From a virus (lineage: Duplodnaviria > Heunggongvirae > Uroviricota > Caudoviricetes), in the IMG/VR virus record IMGVR_UViG_2576861205_000005: 8,059 bases of DNA. One strand, 5' to 3'. The notes beneath the pieces were generated by a model that saw only the letters and a list, made by a program, of their open reading frames with translations, was not told where the DNA came from and did not search any database. A program made the translations under genes and the position numbers. Positions 2 through 8,059 of the stretch are shown one piece after another; the first letter of the stretch is position 1; each line of letters starts with the position of its first letter.

Positions 2-1816
2 TACAGCGTGTGGGGGCTGAAGCTGCCGACGCTGCGCCAGCGCCTGTTCCGCTGCGTGAGTATCCGTGAGAACGATGACGGCACGTATGCCATCACCGCC
101 GTGCAGCATGTACCGGAGAAAGAAGCCATCGTGGATAACGGGGCGCACTTTGACGGTGACCAGAGCGGCACGGTGAATGGTGTCACGCCGCCAGCAGTGC
201 AGCACCTGACCGCCGAAGTCACTGCAGACAGCGGGGAATATCAGGTGCTGGCGCGATGGGACACACCGAAGGTGGTGAAGGGCGTGAGCTTCCTGCTCCG
301 TCTGACCGTAACAGCGGACGACGGCAGTGAGCGACTGGTCAGCACGGCCCGGACGACGGAAACCACATACCGCTTCACGCAACTGGCGCTGGGGAACTAC
401 AGGCTGACAGTCCGGGCGGTAAATGCCCGGGGGCAGCAGGGCGATCCGGCGTCGGTATCGTTCCGGATTGCCGCACCGGCAGCACCGTCGAGGATTGAGC
501 TGACGCCGGGCTATTTTCAGATAACCGCCACGCCGCATCTTGCTGTTTATGACCCGACGGTACAGTTTGAGTTCTGGTTCTCGGAAAAGCGGATTACCGA
601 TATCAGGCAGGTTGAAACCACAGCCCGCTATCTTGGTACGGCGCTGTACTGGATAGCCGCCAGTATCAATATCAAACCGGGCCATGATTATTATTTTTAC
701 GTTCGCAGTGTGAACACCGTTGGCAAATCGGCATTCGTGGAGGCTGTCGGTCGGGCGAGCGATGATGCGGAAGGTTACCTGGATTTTTTCAAAGGAGAAA
801 TCGGGAAAACACATCTGGCCCAGGAGTTGTGGACGCAGATTGATAACGGTCAGCTTGCGCCGGACCTGGCTGAAATCAGGACGTCCATTACGAATGTCAG
901 CAATGAAATCACGCAGACCGTCAATAAAAAACTGGAAGACCAGAGCGCGGCAATCCAGCAGATACAGAAAGTTCAGGTTGATACAAATAATAACCTGAAC
1001 AGCATGTGGGCCGTGAAACTGCAGCAGATGAAGGACGGACGCCTTTATATTGCGGGTATCGGAGCCGGTATTGAGAATACGCCAGCAGGTATGCAGAGTC
1101 AGGTGCTTCTGGCTGCTGACCGGATTGCGATGATTAATCCTGCGAATGGCAACACAAAGCCGATGTTTGTTGGTCAGGGCGATCAGATATTCATGAACGA
1201 AGTGTTCCTGAAATACCTGACGGCTCCCACCATTACCAGCGGCGGTAATCCTCCGGCATTTTCCCTGACACCGGACGGGCGGCTGACGGCGAAAAATGCC
1301 GATATCAGCGGTAACGTGAATGCGAACTCCGGGACGCTCAATAATGTCACCATTAACAAGAACTGTGTCATCAGAGGGAAACTGTCTGCAAACCAGATTG
1401 AAGGCGATCTCGTTAAAACAGTGGGTAAGGCTTTCCCCCGGGACTCCCGTGCACCGGAACGGTGGCCATCAGGGACCATCACCGTCAGGGTTTATGACGA
1501 TCAGCCGTTTGACCGGCAGATTGTTATTCCGGCGGTGGCATTCAGCGGCGCTAAACATGAGCGGGAGAATAACGATATTTATTCGTCATGCCGCCTGATA
1601 GTACGGAAAAACGGTGCTGAAATTTATAACCGTACCGCGCTGGATAATACGCTGATTTACAGTGGTGTTATTGATATGCCAGCTGGTCGCGGCCACATGA
1701 CGCTGGAGTTTTCGGTGTCAGCATGGCTGGTGAATAACTGGTATCCCACAGCAAGTATCAGCGATTTGCTGGTTGTGGTGATGAAGAAAGCCACCGCAGG
1801 CATCAGTATCAGCTGA
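2..1816 (+). CDS. J: Tail tip / host specificity protein J, C-terminal portion (5'-partial; the frame is open from the first bases of the window)
   Basis: A 602-aa ORF, open to the window edge, lying immediately upstream of lom-stf-tfa. The translation has Ig/FN3-like repeat character (e.g. ...[10 protein letters not shown]...[22 protein letters not shown]...), as expected for lambda J family central and C-terminal domains. The track's start at 8 is only the first in-frame GTG; the real start is upstream of the window. Confidence 0.85.
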
Positions 1817-1834
1817 ATTTTATAACCCATATAC

Positions 1835-1862
1835 GGGCGCCAGAAATGGCGCCTTTTTTATT
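1835..1862 (+). terminator. Rho-independent terminator between J and lom
   Basis: GGCGCC (1836-1841), loop AGAAAT, GGCGCC (1848-1853), followed by TTTTTTATT. Confidence 0.7.
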
Positions 1863-1883
1863 GCAGAAAAGCGAGAGGTAATT

Positions 1884-2483
1884 ATGCGTAAATTATGTGC
1901 AGCCATTTTGTCCGCAGCCATCTGTCTGTCCGTATCCGGTGCGCCTGCATGGGCGTCTGAACATCAGTCCACACTGAGCGCGGGGTATCTTCATGCCCGT
2001 ACGAACGCTCCCGGCAGCGATAATCTGAACGGGATTAACGTGAAATACCGTTATGAGTTTACGGACGCGCTGGGGCTGATTACGTCCTTCAGTTATGCCA
2101 ATGCTGAGGATGAGCAAAAAACGCACTACAGCGATACCCGCTGGCATGAAGATTCCGTGCGTAACCGCTGGTTCAGCGTGATGGCGGGGCCGTCTGTACG
2201 CGTGAATGAATGGTTCAGCGCGTATGCGATGGTGGGTGTGGCTTACAGCCGTGTGTCGACTTTCTCCGGGGATTATCTCCGCGTAACTGACAACAAGGGG
2301 AAAACGCACGATGTGCTGACCGGAAGTGATGACGGTCGCCACAGCAACACCTCTCTGGCGTGGGGGGCTGGCGTGCAGTTTAACCCGACCGAATCCGTGG
2401 CCATTGATATTGCTTATGAAGGCTCCGGCAGTGGCGACTGGCGCACTGACGGTTTCATCGTGGGTGTCGGTTATAAGTTCTGA
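1884..2483 (+). CDS. lom: Lom/Ail/PagC-family 8-stranded beta-barrel outer membrane protein (prophage lysogenic-conversion gene)
   Basis: 199 aa. N-terminal signal peptide MRKLCAAILSAAICLSVSGAPAWA. C-terminus ...SGSGDWRTDGFIVGVGYKF with the terminal aromatic typical of OMP barrels and of lambda Lom. GAGAGG ribosome-binding site 5-10 nt upstream of the ATG. Position between J and stf is as in lambda. Confidence 0.9.
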   Translation: MRKLCAAILSAAICLSVSGAPAWASEHQSTLSAGYLHARTNAPGSDNLNGINVKYRYEFTDALGLITSFSYANAEDEQKTHYSDTRWHEDSVRNRWFSVMAGPSVRVNEWFSAYAMVGVAYSRVSTFSGDYLRVTDNKGKTHDVLTGSDDGRHSNTSLAWGAGVQFNPTESVAIDIAYEGSGSGDWRTDGFIVGVGYKF

Positions 2484-2509
2484 TTAGCCAGGTAACACAG
2501 TGTTATGAC

Positions 2510-2537
2510 AGCCCGCCGGTTCAGGCGGGCTTTTTTG
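2510..2537 (+). terminator. Rho-independent terminator downstream of lom
   Basis: AGCCCGCC (2510-2517), loop GGTTCA, GGCGGGCT (2524-2531), then TTTTTT (2531-2536). Confidence 0.75.
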
Positions 2538-2547
2538 TGGAGTGGAT

Positions 2548-5526
2548 ATGGCAGCAGTAAAAATCTCAGGTGTGCTGAAAGATGGTGCGGGAAAACCAAT
2601 ACAGAACTGCACTATTCAACTGAAGGCAAAGCGTAACAGCACCACGGTACTGGTGAACACGGTGGCCTCTGAAAATCCGGATGAAGCCGGGCGTTACAGT
2701 ATGGACGTTGAGTATGGTCAGTACAGCGTCACCCTGCTGGTTGAAGGTTTTCCACCTTCACATGCCGGGACCATTACCGTCTATGAAGGTTCCAGACCAG
2801 GTACGCTGAATGATTTTCTCGGTGCCATGACGGAGGATGATGTCCGACCGGAGGCACTGCGCCGCTTTGAGCAGATGGTGGAAGAGGTGTCACGTAACGC
2901 CTCCGCGGTTGCACAGAATACGGCAGCCGCGAAAAAATCAGCCAGCGATGCCAGTGCATCAGCCAGCGAGGCGGCAACTCATGCAACCGATGCTGCAGCC
3001 TCAGCACGTGCCGCCAGCACGTCAGCCGGACAGGCCGCGTCGTCGGCTCAGTCAGCGTCTTCCAGCGCAGGAACGGCATCGACAAAGGCCCGTGAAGCAG
3101 CAAAAAGTGCTGCTGCTGCAGAGTCATCAAAAAGCGCGGCAGCTACCAGCGCCAGTGCCGCGAAAACGTCAGAAACGAATGCCGCAGCGTCACAACAATC
3201 AGCAGCCACTTCTGCATCCACCGCGACCACGAAAGCGTCAGAAGCAGCCACTTCAGCACGGGATGCGTCGGCTTCAAAAGAGGCGGCAAAATCATCAGAA
3301 ACGAACGCAGCCTCGAGCGCCAGCAGCGCAGCTTCCTCGGCAACGGCGGCAGCAAATTCTGCGAAGGCGGCAAAAACGTCCGAGACGAACGCCAGGTCTT
3401 CTGAAACGGCAGCGGGACAGAGCGCCTCAGCTGCGGCAGACTCAAAAACAGCGGCTGCATTATCTGCCAGTGCCGCGTCAACAAGTGCCGGGCAGGCCTC
3501 AGCCAGTGCCACCGCCGCCGGAAAATCGGCAGAAAGTGCTGCATCGTCTGCTTCAACAGCCACAACGAAGGCTGGCGAAGCCGCTGTACAGGCCAGCGCA
3601 GCAGCGAGGTCTGCTTCCGCAGCGAAGACATCCAAGACGAACGCGAAAGCGTCGGAAACCAGCGCAGAATCCTCAAAAACGGCTGCCGCATCGTCCGCCA
3701 GTTCGGCGGCGTCATCGGCATCATCTGCGTCTGCTTCAAAAGATGAGGCGACCAGACAGGCGTCAGCAGCAAAGGGCAGCGCCACGACGGCATCCACGAA
3801 GGCGACAGAGGCAGCTGGCAGTGCGACGGCGGCAGCTCAGAGCAAAAGTACGGCGGAATCCGCGGCAACGCGCGCTGAGACAGCGGCAAAACGGGCAGAG
3901 GATATTGCATCCGCCGTGGCGCTTGAGGATGCGAGCACGACGAAAAAGGGGATAGTACAGCTCAGCAGTGCGACTAACAGCACTTCCGAGTCACTGGCGG
4001 CAACGCCAAAAGCCGTTAAGGCCGCGTATGAGCTGGCTAACGGGAAATACACCGCACAGGATGCAACGACAGCACAGAAAGGGATAGTTCAGCTTAGCAA
4101 CGCGACCAACAGCACATCTGAAATGCTGGCGGCAACGCCAAAGTCGGTAAAGGCAGCCTATGACCTTGCTAACGGGAAATATACTGCTCAGGACGCTACG
4201 ACAGCACAAAAAGGAATTGTCCAGCTCAGTAGTGCAACCAACAGCGCATCTGAAACGCTTGCCGCGACACCGAAAGCAGTGAAAGCAGCTAATAATAATG
4301 CGAATGGTCGGGTACCTTCTGCCCGTAAGGTGAATGGTAAGGCGCTTTCAGCGGATATAACACTGACGCCGAAAGATATTGGTACGCTTAACTCAACAAC
4401 AATGTCATTCAGCGGTGGTGCTGGTTGGTTCAAATTAGCAACGGTAACCATGCCACAGGCGAGTTCTGTTGTTTCAATTACGTTGATTGGTGGTGCGGGA
4501 TTTAACGTGGGGTCACCTCAACAGGCAGGTATATCTGAACTTGTTTTGCGTGCAGGTAATGGTAATCCGAAGGGGATTACTGGTGCTTTATGGCAGCGCA
4601 CATCGACAGGGTTTACAAATTTTGCCTGGGTCAATACATCTGGTGATACTTACGATATTTACGTTGCAATCGGAAATTATGCGACTGGTGTAAATATTCA
4701 ATGGGATTATACCAGTAATGCCAGCGTGACGATTCATACGTCACCAGCATATTCTGCTAATAAGCCGGAAGGGTTAACGGACGGTACAGTTTATTCACTC
4801 TATACGCCATCAGAGCAGTTTTATCCGCCTGGCGCACCAATCCCGTGGCCATCAGATACCGTTCCGTCTGGCTATGCCCTGATGCAGGGGCAGACTTTTG
4901 ACAAATCTGCATACCCGAAACTTGCAGCCGCTTATCCGTCAGGCGTGATCCCTGATATGCGTGGCTGGACGATTAAGGGCAAACCCGCCAGTGGTCGTGC
5001 CGTATTGTCTCAGGAACAGGACGGCATTAAATCGCACACCCACAGCGCCAGCGCATCCAGTACGGATTTGGGGACGAAAAACACATCGTCGTTTGATTAC
5101 GGAACCAAATCCACGAATAACACCGGGGCGCATACGCACAGTCTGAGTGGCTCTACGGGGTCTGCCGGTGATCATACTCATGGTAATGGTATTCGTTGGC
5201 CAGGAGGCGGCGGTTCTGCGTTAGCATTTTATGATGGCGGTGGGTTCACTTATGTCCAGGATTCACAGTATCAAGTAAGCCCGGGGACTTCTTCCCGTAG
5301 ATCGTATTATCAACGTATTCAGACACAGTCAGCAGGTGCTCATACCCACTCGCTGTCTGGTACTGCAGCAAGTTCTGGCGCACATGCACATACTGTAGGT
5401 ATTGGTGCGCATACGCACTCCGTTGCGATTGGTTCACATGGACACACCATCACCGTTAACGCTGCTGGTAACGCGGAAAACACCGTCAAAAACATCGCAT
5501 TTAACTATATTGTGAGGCTTGCATAA
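2548..5526 (+). CDS. stf: Side tail fibre protein (lambda Stf family), long variant with expanded Ala/Ser-rich shaft, tandem 44-aa repeats and His-x-His-rich C-terminal tip
   Basis: The ORF track starts at GTG 2542. I prefer ATG 2548, which has GGAG 5 nt upstream and gives [27 protein letters not shown]..., matching my recollection of the lambda Stf N-terminus. C-terminus ...[31 protein letters not shown]. The stop overlaps the tfa start (TAATG). Confidence 0.9.
3943..4290 (+). repeat. In-frame tandem repeat inside stf: 2.7 copies of a 132-bp (44-aa) unit
   Basis: Units begin at 3946, 4078 and 4210 (period exactly 132 nt). Encoded peptide is KGIVQLS(S/N)ATNS(T/A)SE(S/M/T)LAATPK(A/S)VKAAY(E/D)[15 protein letters not shown]. 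Copies differ mostly at synonymous positions; the third copy is truncated. Confidence 0.9.
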
Positions 5527-6110
5527 TGGCATTCAGAATGAGTGAACAAGCACGGACCATAAAAATTTATAATCTGCTGGCCGGAACTAATGAATTTATT
5601 GGTGAAGGTGACGCATATATTCCGCCTCATACAGGTCTGCCAGCAAACAGTACCGATATTGCACCACCAGATATTCCTGCTGGCTTTGTGGCTGTTTTCA
5701 ACAGTGATGAGGCATCGTGGCATCTCGTTGAAGACCATCGGGGTAAAACGGTTTATGACGTAGCGTCAGGGGACGAGTTATTTATTTCTGAACTCGGTCC
5801 GTTACCGGAAAATGTTACCTGGTTATCGCCGGAAGGGGAGTTTCAGAAGTGGAACGGCACAGCCTGGGTGAAGGATACGGAAGCAGAAAAAATGTTCCGG
5901 ATCCGGGAGGCGGAAGAAACAAAAAACAACCTGATGCAGGTAGCCAGTGAGCATATTGCGCCGCTTCAGGATGCTGCAGATCTGGAAATTGCAACGGAGG
6001 AAGAAACCTCATTGCTGGAAGCCTGGAAAAAGTATCGGGTGTTGCTGAACCGTGTTGATACATCAACTGCACCTGATATTGAGTGGCCTACGAACCCTGT
6101 CAGGGAGTAA
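5526..6110 (+). CDS. tfa: Tail fibre assembly protein (lambda Tfa family)
   Basis: 194 aa, [44 protein letters not shown]..., the same length and near-identical start to lambda Tfa as I recall it. Start overlaps the stf stop. Confidence 0.9.
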
Positions 6111-6159
6111 TCATTGGGATTATGCCGCAGCACGTCTTAAGCGAGAACGTGCTGCGGTT
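5946..6159 (+). repeat. Direct repeat copy 1 (tfa 3' end plus downstream hairpin), left flank of the cargo gene
   Basis: agtgagcatattgcgccgcttcaggatgctgcagatctggaaattgcaacggaggaagaa...cctgtcagggagtaatcattgggattatgccgcag...gtgctgcggtt recurs at 6995-7209 with scattered substitutions. Confidence 0.9.
6125..6157. terminator. Perfect 11-bp stem / 11-nt loop hairpin between convergent tfa and methyltransferase genes; putative bidirectional terminator or recombination-associated structure
   Basis: CCGCAGCACGT (6125-6135), loop CTTAAGCGAGA, ACGTGCTGCGG (6147-6157). There is no T-run immediately after the stem, so the terminator role is uncertain. It lies inside the direct repeat. Confidence 0.45.
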
Positions 6160-6164
6160 GGATG

Positions 6165-6833
6165 CTATTTTTTCCCTGAAGCGGAAAACATTACTACAGT
6201 ACCTTGAACCTTGGTTTTAACATTCTCGAAATGCTCTGAGAGTATATGTGTTAAGCCTTCTTCGGAATCTTTTGTGTTTGAAAAGATGCCTTTCTGATTG
6301 TAAATGCGCATCAGTTTTTGACCGAAGCTATTGTGCACAACTCCATCGCCAAGAATTGTGGCTCCGTATAGAGTTCCATCGTCAGTTAAGGCCTGCGCCG
6401 CATTGCGTATTACACAGCTTTTTGTAGATATATTTCCAGGCAGGCAGTGAAGAAGGTAAAACATGGAAATGGAATCAAATTGACCATGTAACGCCGCGGG
6501 ATAAGGTTCAAAAACATCATGGCTAATTTTATGTTTAATTTTTGATTCCCCAGCCCTTGTAGATGCCGCGTTCAGGCTAGCTTCGTTCAAATCCATTAAA
6601 GATATCAGACTACTCTCAGGTACGTGAGTAAGGTAAAACCCAGTTCCAACACCAATATCCAGATGGTTGTTACCTACATGTTCCAGAAAGTGTGGAAGAA
6701 GGTGTTCCTTTGTAGGACATCCCCATGCAAGCCGATTTGATACTCCCAAAACCCACCAGTCATAAAGCTTTAGGGTAAGTGGTGTGTAAATTTTAGCCCC
6801 ATCATCTGTGTTTTTTTTCATTGATTTCACCAT
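6165..6833 (-). CDS. Class I (Rossmann-fold) SAM-dependent methyltransferase, small-molecule/RNA/protein type; prophage cargo (moron) gene
   Basis: 222 aa. Motif I HLDIGVGTGFY; acidic post-I residue in ISLMD; motif II-like FDSISMFYLLHCLP; motif III-like LTDDGTLYG. Upstream YDWW...RLAW spacing resembles UbiE/COQ5-type enzymes. No DPPY/NPPY or PCQ DNA-methyltransferase motifs. Opposite strand to all phage genes. Start is ambiguous: the first ATG (6831-6833) has no Shine-Dalgarno, whereas the in-frame ATG at 6819-6821 (Met5) has GGTG upstream. Confidence 0.75.
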   Translation of the reverse strand: MVKSMKKNTDDGAKIYTPLTLKLYDWWVLGVSNRLAWGCPTKEHLLPHFLEHVGNNHLDIGVGTGFYLTHVPESSLISLMDLNEASLNAASTRAGESKIKHKISHDVFEPYPAALHGQFDSISMFYLLHCLPGNISTKSCVIRNAAQALTDDGTLYGATILGDGVVHNSFGQKLMRIYNQKGIFSNTKDSEEGLTHILSEHFENVKTKVQGTVVMFSASGKK

Positions 6834-6889
6834 GTTATAGTTTTATTTGTGAATTAAATCAATTATGGCGATGAATTACAAGGGGTTAA
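6834..6889. promoter_or_regulatory. AT-rich divergent intergenic region; candidate promoter(s) for the methyltransferase (minus) and the tfa-C fragment ORF (plus)
   Basis: 56 bp of AT-rich sequence (ttatagttttatttgtgaattaaatcaattatgg...) between two divergent starts. No -35/-10 was confidently assigned. Confidence 0.3.
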
Positions 6890-7159
6890 ATGCTGCCGCA
6901 GCATAGCGATATTGAAATAGCCTGGTATGCTTCGATACAGCAGGAGCCGAATGGCTGGAAGACCGTCACCACACAGTTCTACATCCAGGAATTCAGTGAG
7001 TATATTGCGCCACTGCAGGATGCTGTAGATCTGGAAATCGCAACGGAGGAAGAAAGATCGTTGCTGGAGGCATGGAATAAATATCGGGTATTGTTGAATC
7101 GTGTTGATACATCAACTGCACCTGATATTGAGTGGCCTGCAAATCCTGTCAGGGAGTAA
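6890..7159 (+). pseudogene. Truncated/chimeric tail fibre assembly protein: novel 35-aa N-terminus fused to the conserved Tfa C-terminal ~54 aa
   Basis: [37 protein letters not shown] then [52 protein letters not shown], against tfa ...[58 protein letters not shown] ribosome-binding site 4 nt before the ATG. It may still be expressed. Confidence 0.6.
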
Positions 7160-7209
7160 TCATTGGGATTATGCCGCAGACACGTCGTATGCAGGAACGT
7201 GCTGCGGTT
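6995..7209 (+). repeat. Direct repeat copy 2 (tfa 3' end plus degenerate hairpin), right flank of the cargo gene
   Basis: Homologous to 5946-6159. The hairpin here carries a 1-nt bulge (CCGCAGACACGT ... ACGTGCTGCGG, 7174-7207). Confidence 0.9.
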
Positions 7210-7273
7210 AGTTTGTGAGCTTTCGATAGTGGTTGTTATTTTTGCCCTTATTTGTTCCGGAGGCCATGGTTCA

Positions 7274-7444
7274 ATGGTCCGTCTGCCCCCTGTGGTGATG
7301 TCAGCAAAATCAGCCACTGCGCGAACCACAATAGCCCGGGAAGATGCTGAAGATCACCAGGTAAAGCTATCAGCGCAGAAACTGGAAGAACTGCTCGCAT
7401 CAATGGTTAAGGATGAGGTTGATCGCAATGATGGGATTTATTGA
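7274..7444 (+). CDS. Hypothetical small protein (56 aa), prophage-end ORF of unknown function
   Basis: GGAGG at 7259-7263, 10 nt upstream of ATG 7274. Product MVRLPPVVMSAKSATARTTIAREDAEDHQVKLSAQKLEELLASMVKDEVDRNDGIY. The stop overlaps a 14-codon ORF (ATGA junction at ~7428-7444). The longer track ORF from 7163 begins inside the tfa repeat, so I do not take that start as real. No family recognised. Confidence 0.25.
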   Translation: MVRLPPVVMSAKSATARTTIAREDAEDHQVKLSAQKLEELLASMVKDEVDRNDGIY

Positions 7445-7559
7445 CGTCAGCGAGAGCAGAAGGAAGAACTGAATAACCTGAATGATTTACGCTCAATCAG
7501 AGCGATGATGATTGGCAGTAATTAGCGGTCAATTTCGGTTTTTTTGGCTGTGCGCTCCC

Positions 7560-7756
7560 CGCCCAGCATTGCGCGTCAATTAGCCCCAAAAAAACGAAAA
7601 AGTTACAATCAAGTAAAAAATTCCTTCTGCAAAACTAAAAAAGATTTCAATAAAATCAGACAGTTAAAAACATAAAAAAAAGGTACAAAAAAACATCTCA
7701 AAGTCTTGTTTTTTGCTTCAAATACAATTGGTTATTGTGTTTTTTGAAACCTACCA
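7560..7756. other. AT-rich non-coding tract at the prophage end; candidate attachment-site arm (attR-type P arm) abutting the host ompW fragment
   Basis: About 200 bp with long A/T runs (cccaaaaaaacgaaaaagttacaatcaagtaaaaaatt...cataaaaaaaaggtacaaaaaaacatc...) and no ORF of 60 aa or more on either strand, immediately before the ompW-like reading frame. Confidence 0.4.
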
Positions 7757-7873
7757 GTCTGGTACATGGATATTGATACCACTGCCAATTATAAACTGGG
7801 CGGAGCACAGCAACACGATAGCGTACGCCTCGATCCGTGGGTGTTTATGTTCTCAGCAGGATATCGTTTTTAA
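7757..7873 (+). pseudogene. ompW: Displaced 3' end fragment of outer membrane protein W gene (ompW/yciD), at the prophage-host junction
   Basis: Translation ...VWYMDIDTTANYKLGGAQQHDSVRLDPWVFMFSAGYRF* matches the OmpW C-terminal beta-strand as I recall it, including the terminal aromatic. An in-frame TGA lies just upstream (7742-7744) and the sequence before ~7757 is AT-rich and non-coding, so only the 3' portion is present. Exact breakpoint not determined. Confidence 0.65.
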
Positions 7874-7887
7874 TTCCGCACAAAAAT

Positions 7888-7907
7888 GACCCCGTAATTA
7901 CGGGGTC
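7888..7907. terminator. Bidirectional Rho-independent terminator between convergent ompW fragment and downstream minus-strand gene
   Basis: GACCCCGTAATTACGGGGTC perfect palindrome, with AAAAAT upstream and AATAAGG downstream. Confidence 0.8.
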
Positions 7908-7931
7908 AATAAGGACATGGTATAAAGGGTA

Positions 7932-8059
7932 TTATTTCTTCGCTTCTACGCCATCAGTTTCAGAGCGAATTAAGAATTTCTCAGTTGTTTGCGGAATATG
8001 CTGAATTAGCCAGTCGGCCATGTGCTTTTCATCATTTAAAATCGCTTCGATAATCGGAA
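7932..8059 (-). CDS. yciE: 3' end of a convergent host gene, probably the DUF892/ferritin-like protein YciE (5'-partial; continues beyond the window)
   Basis: Minus-strand frame open to the window edge, ending ...PIIEAILNDEKHMADWLIQHIPQTTEKFLIRSETDGVEAKK* (stop is the reverse complement of 7932-7934). Convergent with ompW, as in the E. coli ompW-yciE arrangement from memory. Name assignment is from recollection only. Confidence 0.5.
   Translation of the reverse strand, partial: PIIEAILNDEKHMADWLIQHIPQTTEKFLIRSETDGVEAKK

Follow-up and report, generated by a model that had tools for sequence, protein, structure and literature searches.

A native 3′ end of ompW stranded at the right junction of a lambda-like prophage

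The window, that is, the whole stretch of 8,059 bases analysed here, covers the right end of a lambda-like prophage and, beyond it, host DNA. Its features are collected in Table 1; the gene order was assembled from the ORF list, Pfam scans, and the PGAP annotation of UTI89, whose corresponding region is identical or nearly so. The last phage-side coding trace is annotated as a DUF4376 remnant, and a Pfam scan of that remnant gave no match. Over positions 7300-8059, the window is 100% identical to B2/ST95-type ExPEC genomes (UTI89, S88, APEC O1, NU14, ATCC 11775, and others), and in the same region of UTI89, PGAP calls an OmpW fragment, then yciE, yciF, yciG, and trp. When the full 8,059 bases were compared with complete genomes, no exact match was found, the best reaching 99.1-99.2% identity over 99% of the length. 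One candidate cause may be the tail-fibre gene, which has 2,985 bp (994 aa) in the window versus 3,108 bp (~1,035 aa) in UTI89. For want of an exact match, the far junction in the strain of the window is assumed from UTI89. The window itself contains attR only, and attL, the integrase gene, and the chimeric ompW described below were read in UTI89 and other genomes.

Table 1. Features of the 8,059-base window (positions count from its first base).
Feature	Position	Strand	Basis or remark
Prophage late (right) end	8-7444	+	ORF list, PGAP of UTI89 region, Pfam (Ail_Lom, Caudo_TAP, Methyltransf)
Tail-tip gene J, 3′ part	8-1816	+	ORF list, PGAP of UTI89
lom	1884-2483	+	Pfam Ail_Lom
Side tail fibre gene	2542-5526	+	ORF list, PGAP of UTI89
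Tail fibre assembly gene tfa	5526-6110	+	ORF list, PGAP of UTI89
Class I SAM-dependent methyltransferase gene	6165-6833	-	Pfam Methyltransf
tfa 3′ fragment	6890-7159	+	ORF list, PGAP of UTI89
DUF4376 pseudogene remnant, last phage-side coding trace before the P arm	7163-7444		PGAP of UTI89; internal stop
P arm of attR, non-coding AT-rich phage DNA, ~310 bp	7445-7754	.	GC, contiguity in CP025907
Putative integrase arm-type site TCTGCAAAAC, single P-arm copy	7626-7635	+	Repeat search; ~130 bp left of the crossover
IHF-consensus-like site AATCAGACAGTTA, one mismatch	7654-7666	+	Weak annotation; others at 7696-7711
In-frame TGA closing the ompW frame on the phage side	7745-7747	+	Translation; PGAP pseudogene begins at 7748
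CAGT, mapped site-specific crossover interval, left edge of the att homology	7755-7758	.	att alignment
Native (host) copy of the 121-bp att homology	7755-7875	+	Last 39 ompW codons, TAA at 7871-7873, 2 nt
Host intergenic hairpin TGACCCCGTAATTACGGGGTCA between ompW and yciE	7887-7908	.	Terminator scan, folding
3′ end of host gene yciE (ferritin-like protein), convergent with ompW	7932-8059	-	PGAP of UTI89; cut by the window end

Some features of the tail-fibre region were observed besides. The side tail fibre gene encodes a very long Ala/Ser/Thr-rich low-complexity region and is overlapped by several long alternative-frame ORFs on both strands. The final ~58 codons of tfa are present twice (in 5526-6110 and 6890-7159), bracketing the minus-strand methyltransferase gene of lower GC, which looks like a cargo gene put into the tail-fibre module. 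The same region of E. coli U12A has an inverted tfa and a recombinase remnant as well, which suggests that the tail-fibre region is a decayed invertible segment.

At the phage-host boundary, a model that saw only the letters and their ORFs (hereafter the sequence-only reading) had described an AT-rich tract, an in-frame stop, a frame for the C-terminal end of OmpW, and a convergent yciE-like gene. All four were found. The window as a whole has a GC content of 50.9%, but its stretch 7560-7754 has 29.7%; the P arm as delimited here has 35.8%, with a minimum of 23.3% at 7600-7749. The P arm left of 7755 gave no match to uninterrupted ompW loci. Next to it, the frame closing at the TAA translates as …CVF-stop-NLPVWYMDIDTTANYKLGGAQQHDSVRLDPWVFMFSAGYRF-stop, the first of these stops being the TGA of Table 1. 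The 41 residues encoded by 7748-7873 match positions 155-195 of the 195 positions of the Pfam OmpW profile PF03922 (E = 3.9e-14), and PGAP annotates the same segment in UTI89 as 'OmpW family outer membrane protein, incomplete, missing N-terminus'. Since only this part of the profile is present and it follows an in-frame stop, it is a fragment of a PF03922 member, not a gene. The window ORF does not encode the full-length eight-stranded OmpW barrel with a signal peptide, and the stranded fragment (7755-7875) has neither a start nor a promoter of its own. On the minus strand, the yciE translation ends …EKFLIRSETDGVEAKK-stop.

The sequence-only reading had also proposed that the two convergent genes share a palindromic terminator. 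A palindrome with a 9-bp stem is indeed there, and it is also found in uninterrupted ompW-yciE loci. It folds on either strand (-16.2 and -16.3 kcal/mol, z = -2.7 and -3.4). On the other hand, a terminator scan scored it on the minus strand only, and a U-run follows the stem on the yciE strand alone, while the ompW strand has AAUAAGG there. The hairpin is a clear intrinsic terminator for yciE and for ompW a weak one at best; the proposed sharing is only partly supported.

Positions 7445-7931 are almost certainly the attR of a PPompW-type lambdoid prophage, and no observation spoke against this assignment. I made a five-way alignment of attR (the window), attL (UTI89), attB from an O2:H6 B2 strain, attB from K-12, and attP (Escherichia phage 204576, CP025907). 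In both attB sequences, ompW is uninterrupted and lies directly before yciE. The phage record matches window positions 7300-7875 at 96% and then diverges into other sequence; its order is P arm, a 121-bp ompW-like block, P′ arm, and int. Since the record is contiguous across the site, it holds attP. The alignment shows that attL is B plus P′ and attR is P plus B′. On the attL side of UTI89, yciC is followed by a complete 639-bp ompW (212 aa), 45 bp, and int and xis on the opposite strand, and then by a full lambdoid gene set running to J. The attL copy occupies 8408-8528 of the UTI89 locus (L003). The start points of the two ompW repeats are 47,079 bp apart in UTI89, corresponding to a ~47-kb lambdoid prophage. 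Thus an imperfect direct duplication of 121 bp from the ompW 3′ end flanks the prophage, as judged from the window attR and the UTI89 attL. The boundaries of the block in the window (7755-7875) equal those of a repeat_region of LC567822, 'duplication due to insertion of PPompW', 121 bp. When 7748-8059 was used as a megablast query, the alignment started at query base 8 (= 7755) in every non-lysogen listed. The nucleotide similarity therefore begins at 7755, two bases from the onset of ~7757 given by the sequence-only reading, and alignment to uninterrupted ompW-yciE loci shows that 7757-7873 is derived from ompW and that the breakpoint is 7754/7755.

Which of the two copies is native? The attR copy in the window is identical to the intact B2 ompW at 120 of 121 positions, to K-12 ompW at 116 of 121, and to the UTI89 attL copy at only 93 of 121. 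The UTI89 attL copy is identical to the attP of phage 204576 and to the attL of the O145:H28 PPompW, at 121 of 121 positions in each case. A 120/121 match to an intact ompW allele is, on this alignment, far beyond chance. Since the attR copy is host-type and the attL copy is phage-type, the stranded end is native and the phage provides the replacement. The host-type attR and phage-type attL segregate likewise in O145:H28. These results bear out the proposal that only a 3′ fragment of ompW lies in the window and that a phage-supplied end replaces it at the far junction: at the other prophage end of UTI89, the 5′ part of ompW is fused to a phage-type 3′ end, and no complete ompW lies immediately upstream of the fragment, the intact gene being 47 kb off. 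The wording that the native 3′ fragment had been displaced calls for one amendment: the fragment is native and next to yciE, but it has kept its place, whereas the remaining part of ompW now lies 47 kb off.

The ompW gene of the UTI89 lysogen encodes 212 aa, the same length as in K-12 and in the O2:H6 strain; the reading frame is kept, and PGAP annotates the product as OmpW. The UTI89 chimera differs from native OmpW by N185K, L188S, G190V, A191T, Q192T, Q193V, and H194K, so that two lysines are gained. Between the phage and host copies, 11 codon differences are synonymous and 7 are non-synonymous. All 7 non-synonymous codons fall in one 10-codon stretch (clustering bound P ~ 3e-4), while the flanking strand segments and the C-terminal …FMFSAGYRF are unaltered in the phage copy. 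Since the amino-acid changes are confined to one stretch with unaltered flanks, the phage copy has evolved as a coding sequence. Such a pattern is characteristic of a copy that selection has maintained for encoding a working barrel, and the chimeric OmpW is very probably made in the lysogen.

The 'Integration Hotspots' section of PMC3603311 sets icd, whose ORF length is preserved, against 'the second case', apparently ompW, which is disrupted. For icd, according to the citation of Wang et al. 1997 in PMC3603311, integration duplicates the 3′ end and leaves the ORF length unchanged. The sentence on the second case can be read as gene disruption, and this reading, together with the seven altered residues, might mean that integration inactivates ompW, by truncation or by a non-functional chimera, and that lysogens are effectively OmpW-negative. 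This is highly unlikely, since the attL ORF has the native length of 212 aa and is annotated by PGAP as OmpW, both flanking beta-strand segments and the C-terminal …FSAGYRF are unaltered, and 9 of the 9 altered codons outside the 10-codon stretch are synonymous, as under selection for a working protein. Moreover, other phage lineages keep conserved flanks around differing loops, and a terminator is provided by the phage. Judging from the lysogen sequences examined, in which the ORF length is preserved, disruption of ompW in the sense of PMC3603311 is unsupported.

Could the stranded fragment be expressed by itself? An ATG-initiated ORF does exist at 7766-7873 and would give a 35-aa protein (MDIDTT…GYRF). 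However, no Shine-Dalgarno-like sequence is found upstream of the ATG (ccagtctggtacATG), no plus-strand promoter-like site is found in 7560-7765, and the product has no signal peptide; what looks like a start codon is the codon of Met-178 of OmpW. The expression of such a small protein is thus very improbable.

The position of the exchange was mapped by comparing the two junctions with their parents. At 7754 and leftward, attR is phage-type (…AAACCTAC) and attL is host-type (…TAACATGT). At 7759 and rightward, attR is host-type and attL is phage-type at every discriminating base; there are 27-28 discriminating positions, from 7759 to 7855, and all of them segregate in this way. Since the type switches between 7754 and 7759, the exchange is mapped to CAGT, the first four bases of the 121 bp. 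The 7-bp overlap is probably CAGT(G/C)TG, in the middle of the attP palindrome TACCA-GTG-TGGTA. For the B2 host allele, the identity across the inferred exchange point is limited to the 4 bp of CAGT. This is less than the 7 bp of a lambda-type overlap and means that a mismatch at 7759 would have to be tolerated. Mechanistically, the 121 bp is not a recombination core; it consists of a short exchange site and ~117 bp of coding sequence that replaces the host's.

An exchange at any point of the 121-bp homology would in principle yield the same gross map, and attP and K-12-type ompW do not differ in the first 28 bp of the block. A crossover at the right edge would make the fragment at 7755-7873 phage-borne and leave the native end on ompW at attL. 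The chance of this is negligible, because the attR copy has 1 difference in 121 positions from the intact B2 ompW but 28 from attP, and the attL copy is identical to attP throughout, with the O145:H28 copies segregating alike; the comparison of the att copies refutes it. Equally negligible is the notion, resting on the bare presence of a gene fragment, that 7755-7875 is an ordinary decayed pseudogene or local duplication with a prophage merely nearby: it is refuted by the four att forms, since the host similarity breaks sharply at 7754/7755, which coincides with the attP sequence of an independent phage record, the prophage lies exactly between the two repeats, and attP has been confirmed experimentally for the PPompW family (PMC8112680).

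A different host junction was found in Escherichia albertii NBRC 107761 (NZ_BBMY01000048.1; positions 3440-3900 of locus L008). There, the block of 121 bp, with the same P′ arm, int, and xis, adjoins an unrelated gene, rlmC, which encodes the 23S rRNA U747 methyltransferase. The rlmC gene is truncated, and an ORF for a fusion of RlmC with the OmpW tail runs from 3520 to 3885 on the minus strand. The similarity to intact rlmC stops at …CTGCCAGT, and the join is at CCAGT. This join agrees independently with a crossover at CAGT. The E. albertii case looks like an insertion into a secondary site, which shares only ~5 bp with attP.

The integrase encoded at attL of UTI89 has a lambda Int arm DNA-binding domain (PF09003, E = 7e-22) and a catalytic domain (PF00589, E = 1e-16), and the neighbouring xis product matches PF07825. 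A repeat search revealed the 10-mer TCTGCAAAAC, which has one exact copy in the window, in the P arm, and three tandem copies in the P′ arm directly after the stop codon of the phage-supplied ompW end. A second P-arm copy was not found within 2 mismatches. Since the integrase has an arm-binding domain and the repeats occur in both P and P′, TCTGCAAAAC was read as the arm-type Int site, to which the integrase would bind. One-mismatch matches to the IHF consensus number nine in the window, three of them in the ~200-bp arm, a total that does not exceed what shuffled sequence leads one to expect. The three P′ repeats are followed by a phage-supplied perfect 12-bp hairpin with A and T runs on its two sides (-17 kcal/mol, z = -5.8), which could terminate both the chimeric ompW and int.

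The following course of integration is proposed. A lambda-family tyrosine integrase with an arm-binding domain would recombine attP with the host ompW, the exchange taking place at a short CAGT-centred site 39 codons before the ompW stop. Directly to the right of the crossover, attP carries a 117-bp diverged copy of the ompW 3′ end; beyond this copy come the three putative arm-type repeats and a strong bidirectional terminator hairpin. In the integrated state, the ompW promoter and the first 173 codons read into the phage copy at attL, so that the chimeric gene encodes an OmpW of full length (212 aa) with seven substitutions between residues 185 and 194. At attR, the 39 codons of the original gene end remain beside yciE as a non-functional fragment, behind the AT-rich P arm and an in-frame stop.

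Where does the altered stretch lie in the protein? The published topology of OmpW is an eight-stranded barrel with long extracellular loops and short periplasmic turns, and the OmpW protein matches PDB entries 2F1T, 2F1V, and 2MHL. By analogy with this topology, residues 185-194 would be the fourth extracellular loop (L4), between the last two beta-strands. One of the altered residues, Q192, is Q171 of the mature protein. A docking study placed Q171 in a fumarate side pocket that was said to compete with colicin S4; L28 lies in the same pocket, and the stretch 21-28 is unresolved in the crystal structure and was modelled as a loop.

The phage-borne end itself varies. When attL variants were sampled, including PSJ-22, UTAK-6, U12A (L012), 2012C-4227 (L013), and UTI89, at least three versions of the C-terminus were found, which differ only between the last two beta-strands, the strand flanks and the terminal …GYRF being identical. 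The native host loop is TTANYKLGGAQQHDS; the type 1 loop is TTAKYKSGVTTVKDS; the type 2 loop (PSJ-22, L010) is TTASYKFNGTPVKDS; and the type 3 loop (UTAK-6, L011), five residues longer and giving a 217-aa OmpW, is TTAKYKSDGRKLAKGSYSDN. Type 3 resembles the native divergent ompW allele at the attR of U12A. This likeness indicates that the phage copies probably come from ompW ends captured in other hosts. I searched for a native gene with the type 1 peptide AKYKSGVTTVKDS, using the exact back-translated peptide against one genome per species in 185,579 species, a search that misses diverged sources, and found none; the sole match was the prophage junction of E. albertii. With a synthetic chimeric query, a phage-type end directly beside yciE without a prophage was not found in any of 5,426 genomes, and the best full-length match (94.8%) was an ordinary host-type ompW. 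Since no such scar allele was found, it seems that prophage loss restores the host allele, or that recombination between the 77%-identical repeats is rare.

If the loop aids colicin S4 binding or the adsorption of OmpW-dependent phages, integration would alter susceptibility without an exclusion gene. Lysogeny by ompW phages would then amount to receptor conversion, the phage 3′ end rewriting the last exposed loop of OmpW. This appears rather unlikely, and the loop variation fits neutral carry-over from earlier hosts equally well, as type 3 resembles a native divergent allele. About a third of E. coli strains may make an OmpW with a phage-written surface loop, which might alter their sensitivity to colicin S4 or phages.

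The attR region of U12A (25840-26220 of locus L014) differs in other respects. It has the divergent native ompW end (…DTEVKYKSNGAVLPAGRYSDNVRLDPW…), and it lacks yciE, yciF, and yciG, the ompW fragment abutting trpA. The prophage has extra Rha and ash genes before attR, and its P arm beside the core (AAACATGTCGGT) resembles ompW itself.

The junction in the window is the published PPompW/OI-57 integration site with its 121-bp att and is thus already known. Nakamura et al. (2021, PLoS Pathog, PMC8112680) described the 121-bp att of PPompW, sequenced attP after mitomycin C induction, and showed excision, as induced attP, for O145:H28 members. O-island 57 of EDL933 is located at ompW, and an Stx2e prophage is bordered by a duplicated 126-bp C-terminal fragment of ompW (PMC9729726). 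The prophage studied here shares with the PPompW prophages of STEC and EPEC (LC567818-LC567841) the target gene, the boundaries of the 121-bp duplication, the attL copy base for base, the int-xis order at attL, the P′ repeats, and a lambdoid genome of ~44-48 kb. The P arm beside the core is only ~90% identical to that of PPompW. The host background differs, being B2/ST95-like ExPEC here and STEC for PPompW, and so does the right arm, which has tfa, the methyltransferase gene, and the DUF4376 remnant here but the nleG effector locus and internal attB-in-PP sites in PPompW.

In phage 21 and e14, which integrate at icd, the 3′ end of the gene is replaced by a diverged copy that the phage brings, with the crossover at the 5′ border of the homologous block, and the native end becomes a pseudogene. 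The ompW case resembles them in its lambdoid integrase, in the use of the 3′ part of a protein gene, in the kept ORF length, and in the native end left at the far junction. It also has the hallmark of the icd type, namely a crossover at the 5′ edge with the whole attL block derived from the phage. The target gene and the integrase specificity are different. Furthermore, the icd replacement is mostly synonymous, whereas seven amino acids change here in a probably exposed segment of an outer membrane protein.

Lambda likewise has a tyrosine integrase with an N-terminal arm-binding domain, an excisionase, an AT-rich P arm, the order attL-int-xis…J-attR, and three P′ sites, P′1-P′3, like the three found here. 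It differs in the core sequence and the target. Here, ~117 bp of coding sequence lie between the crossover and the P′ sites, and one P-arm repeat was found, compared with two in lambda. The logic is that of integration at the 3′ ends of tRNA and tmRNA genes: because a copy of the target's 3′ end travels with the element, integration would regenerate a functional gene. Since the target is protein-coding, unlike tRNA and tmRNA, the replacement can change the product and does so.

How common is this arrangement? The attL-type junction, consisting of ompW, the phage end, and the integrase gene, was found at a query coverage of at least 80% in 1,715 of 5,426 complete E. coli genomes (about 32%), and the attR type of the window was found in 554 genomes. 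Bobay et al. listed ompW among the most occupied prophage hotspots (PMC3603311). Since ompW is among the busiest of these hotspots in E. coli, the correct reading of the junction affects many genomes. The OmpW 'pseudogene' beside yciE marks a prophage boundary, not the loss of OmpW; the presumably working gene is 47 kb away.

The family includes a member that has lost its mobility. At the attL of E. coli 2012C-4227 (540-900 of locus L013), the P′ arm has two of the three TCTGCAAAAC repeats, and the adjacent integrase gene is frameshifted and interrupted by IS600. The frameshift and the IS600 insertion make this an immobilised prophage.
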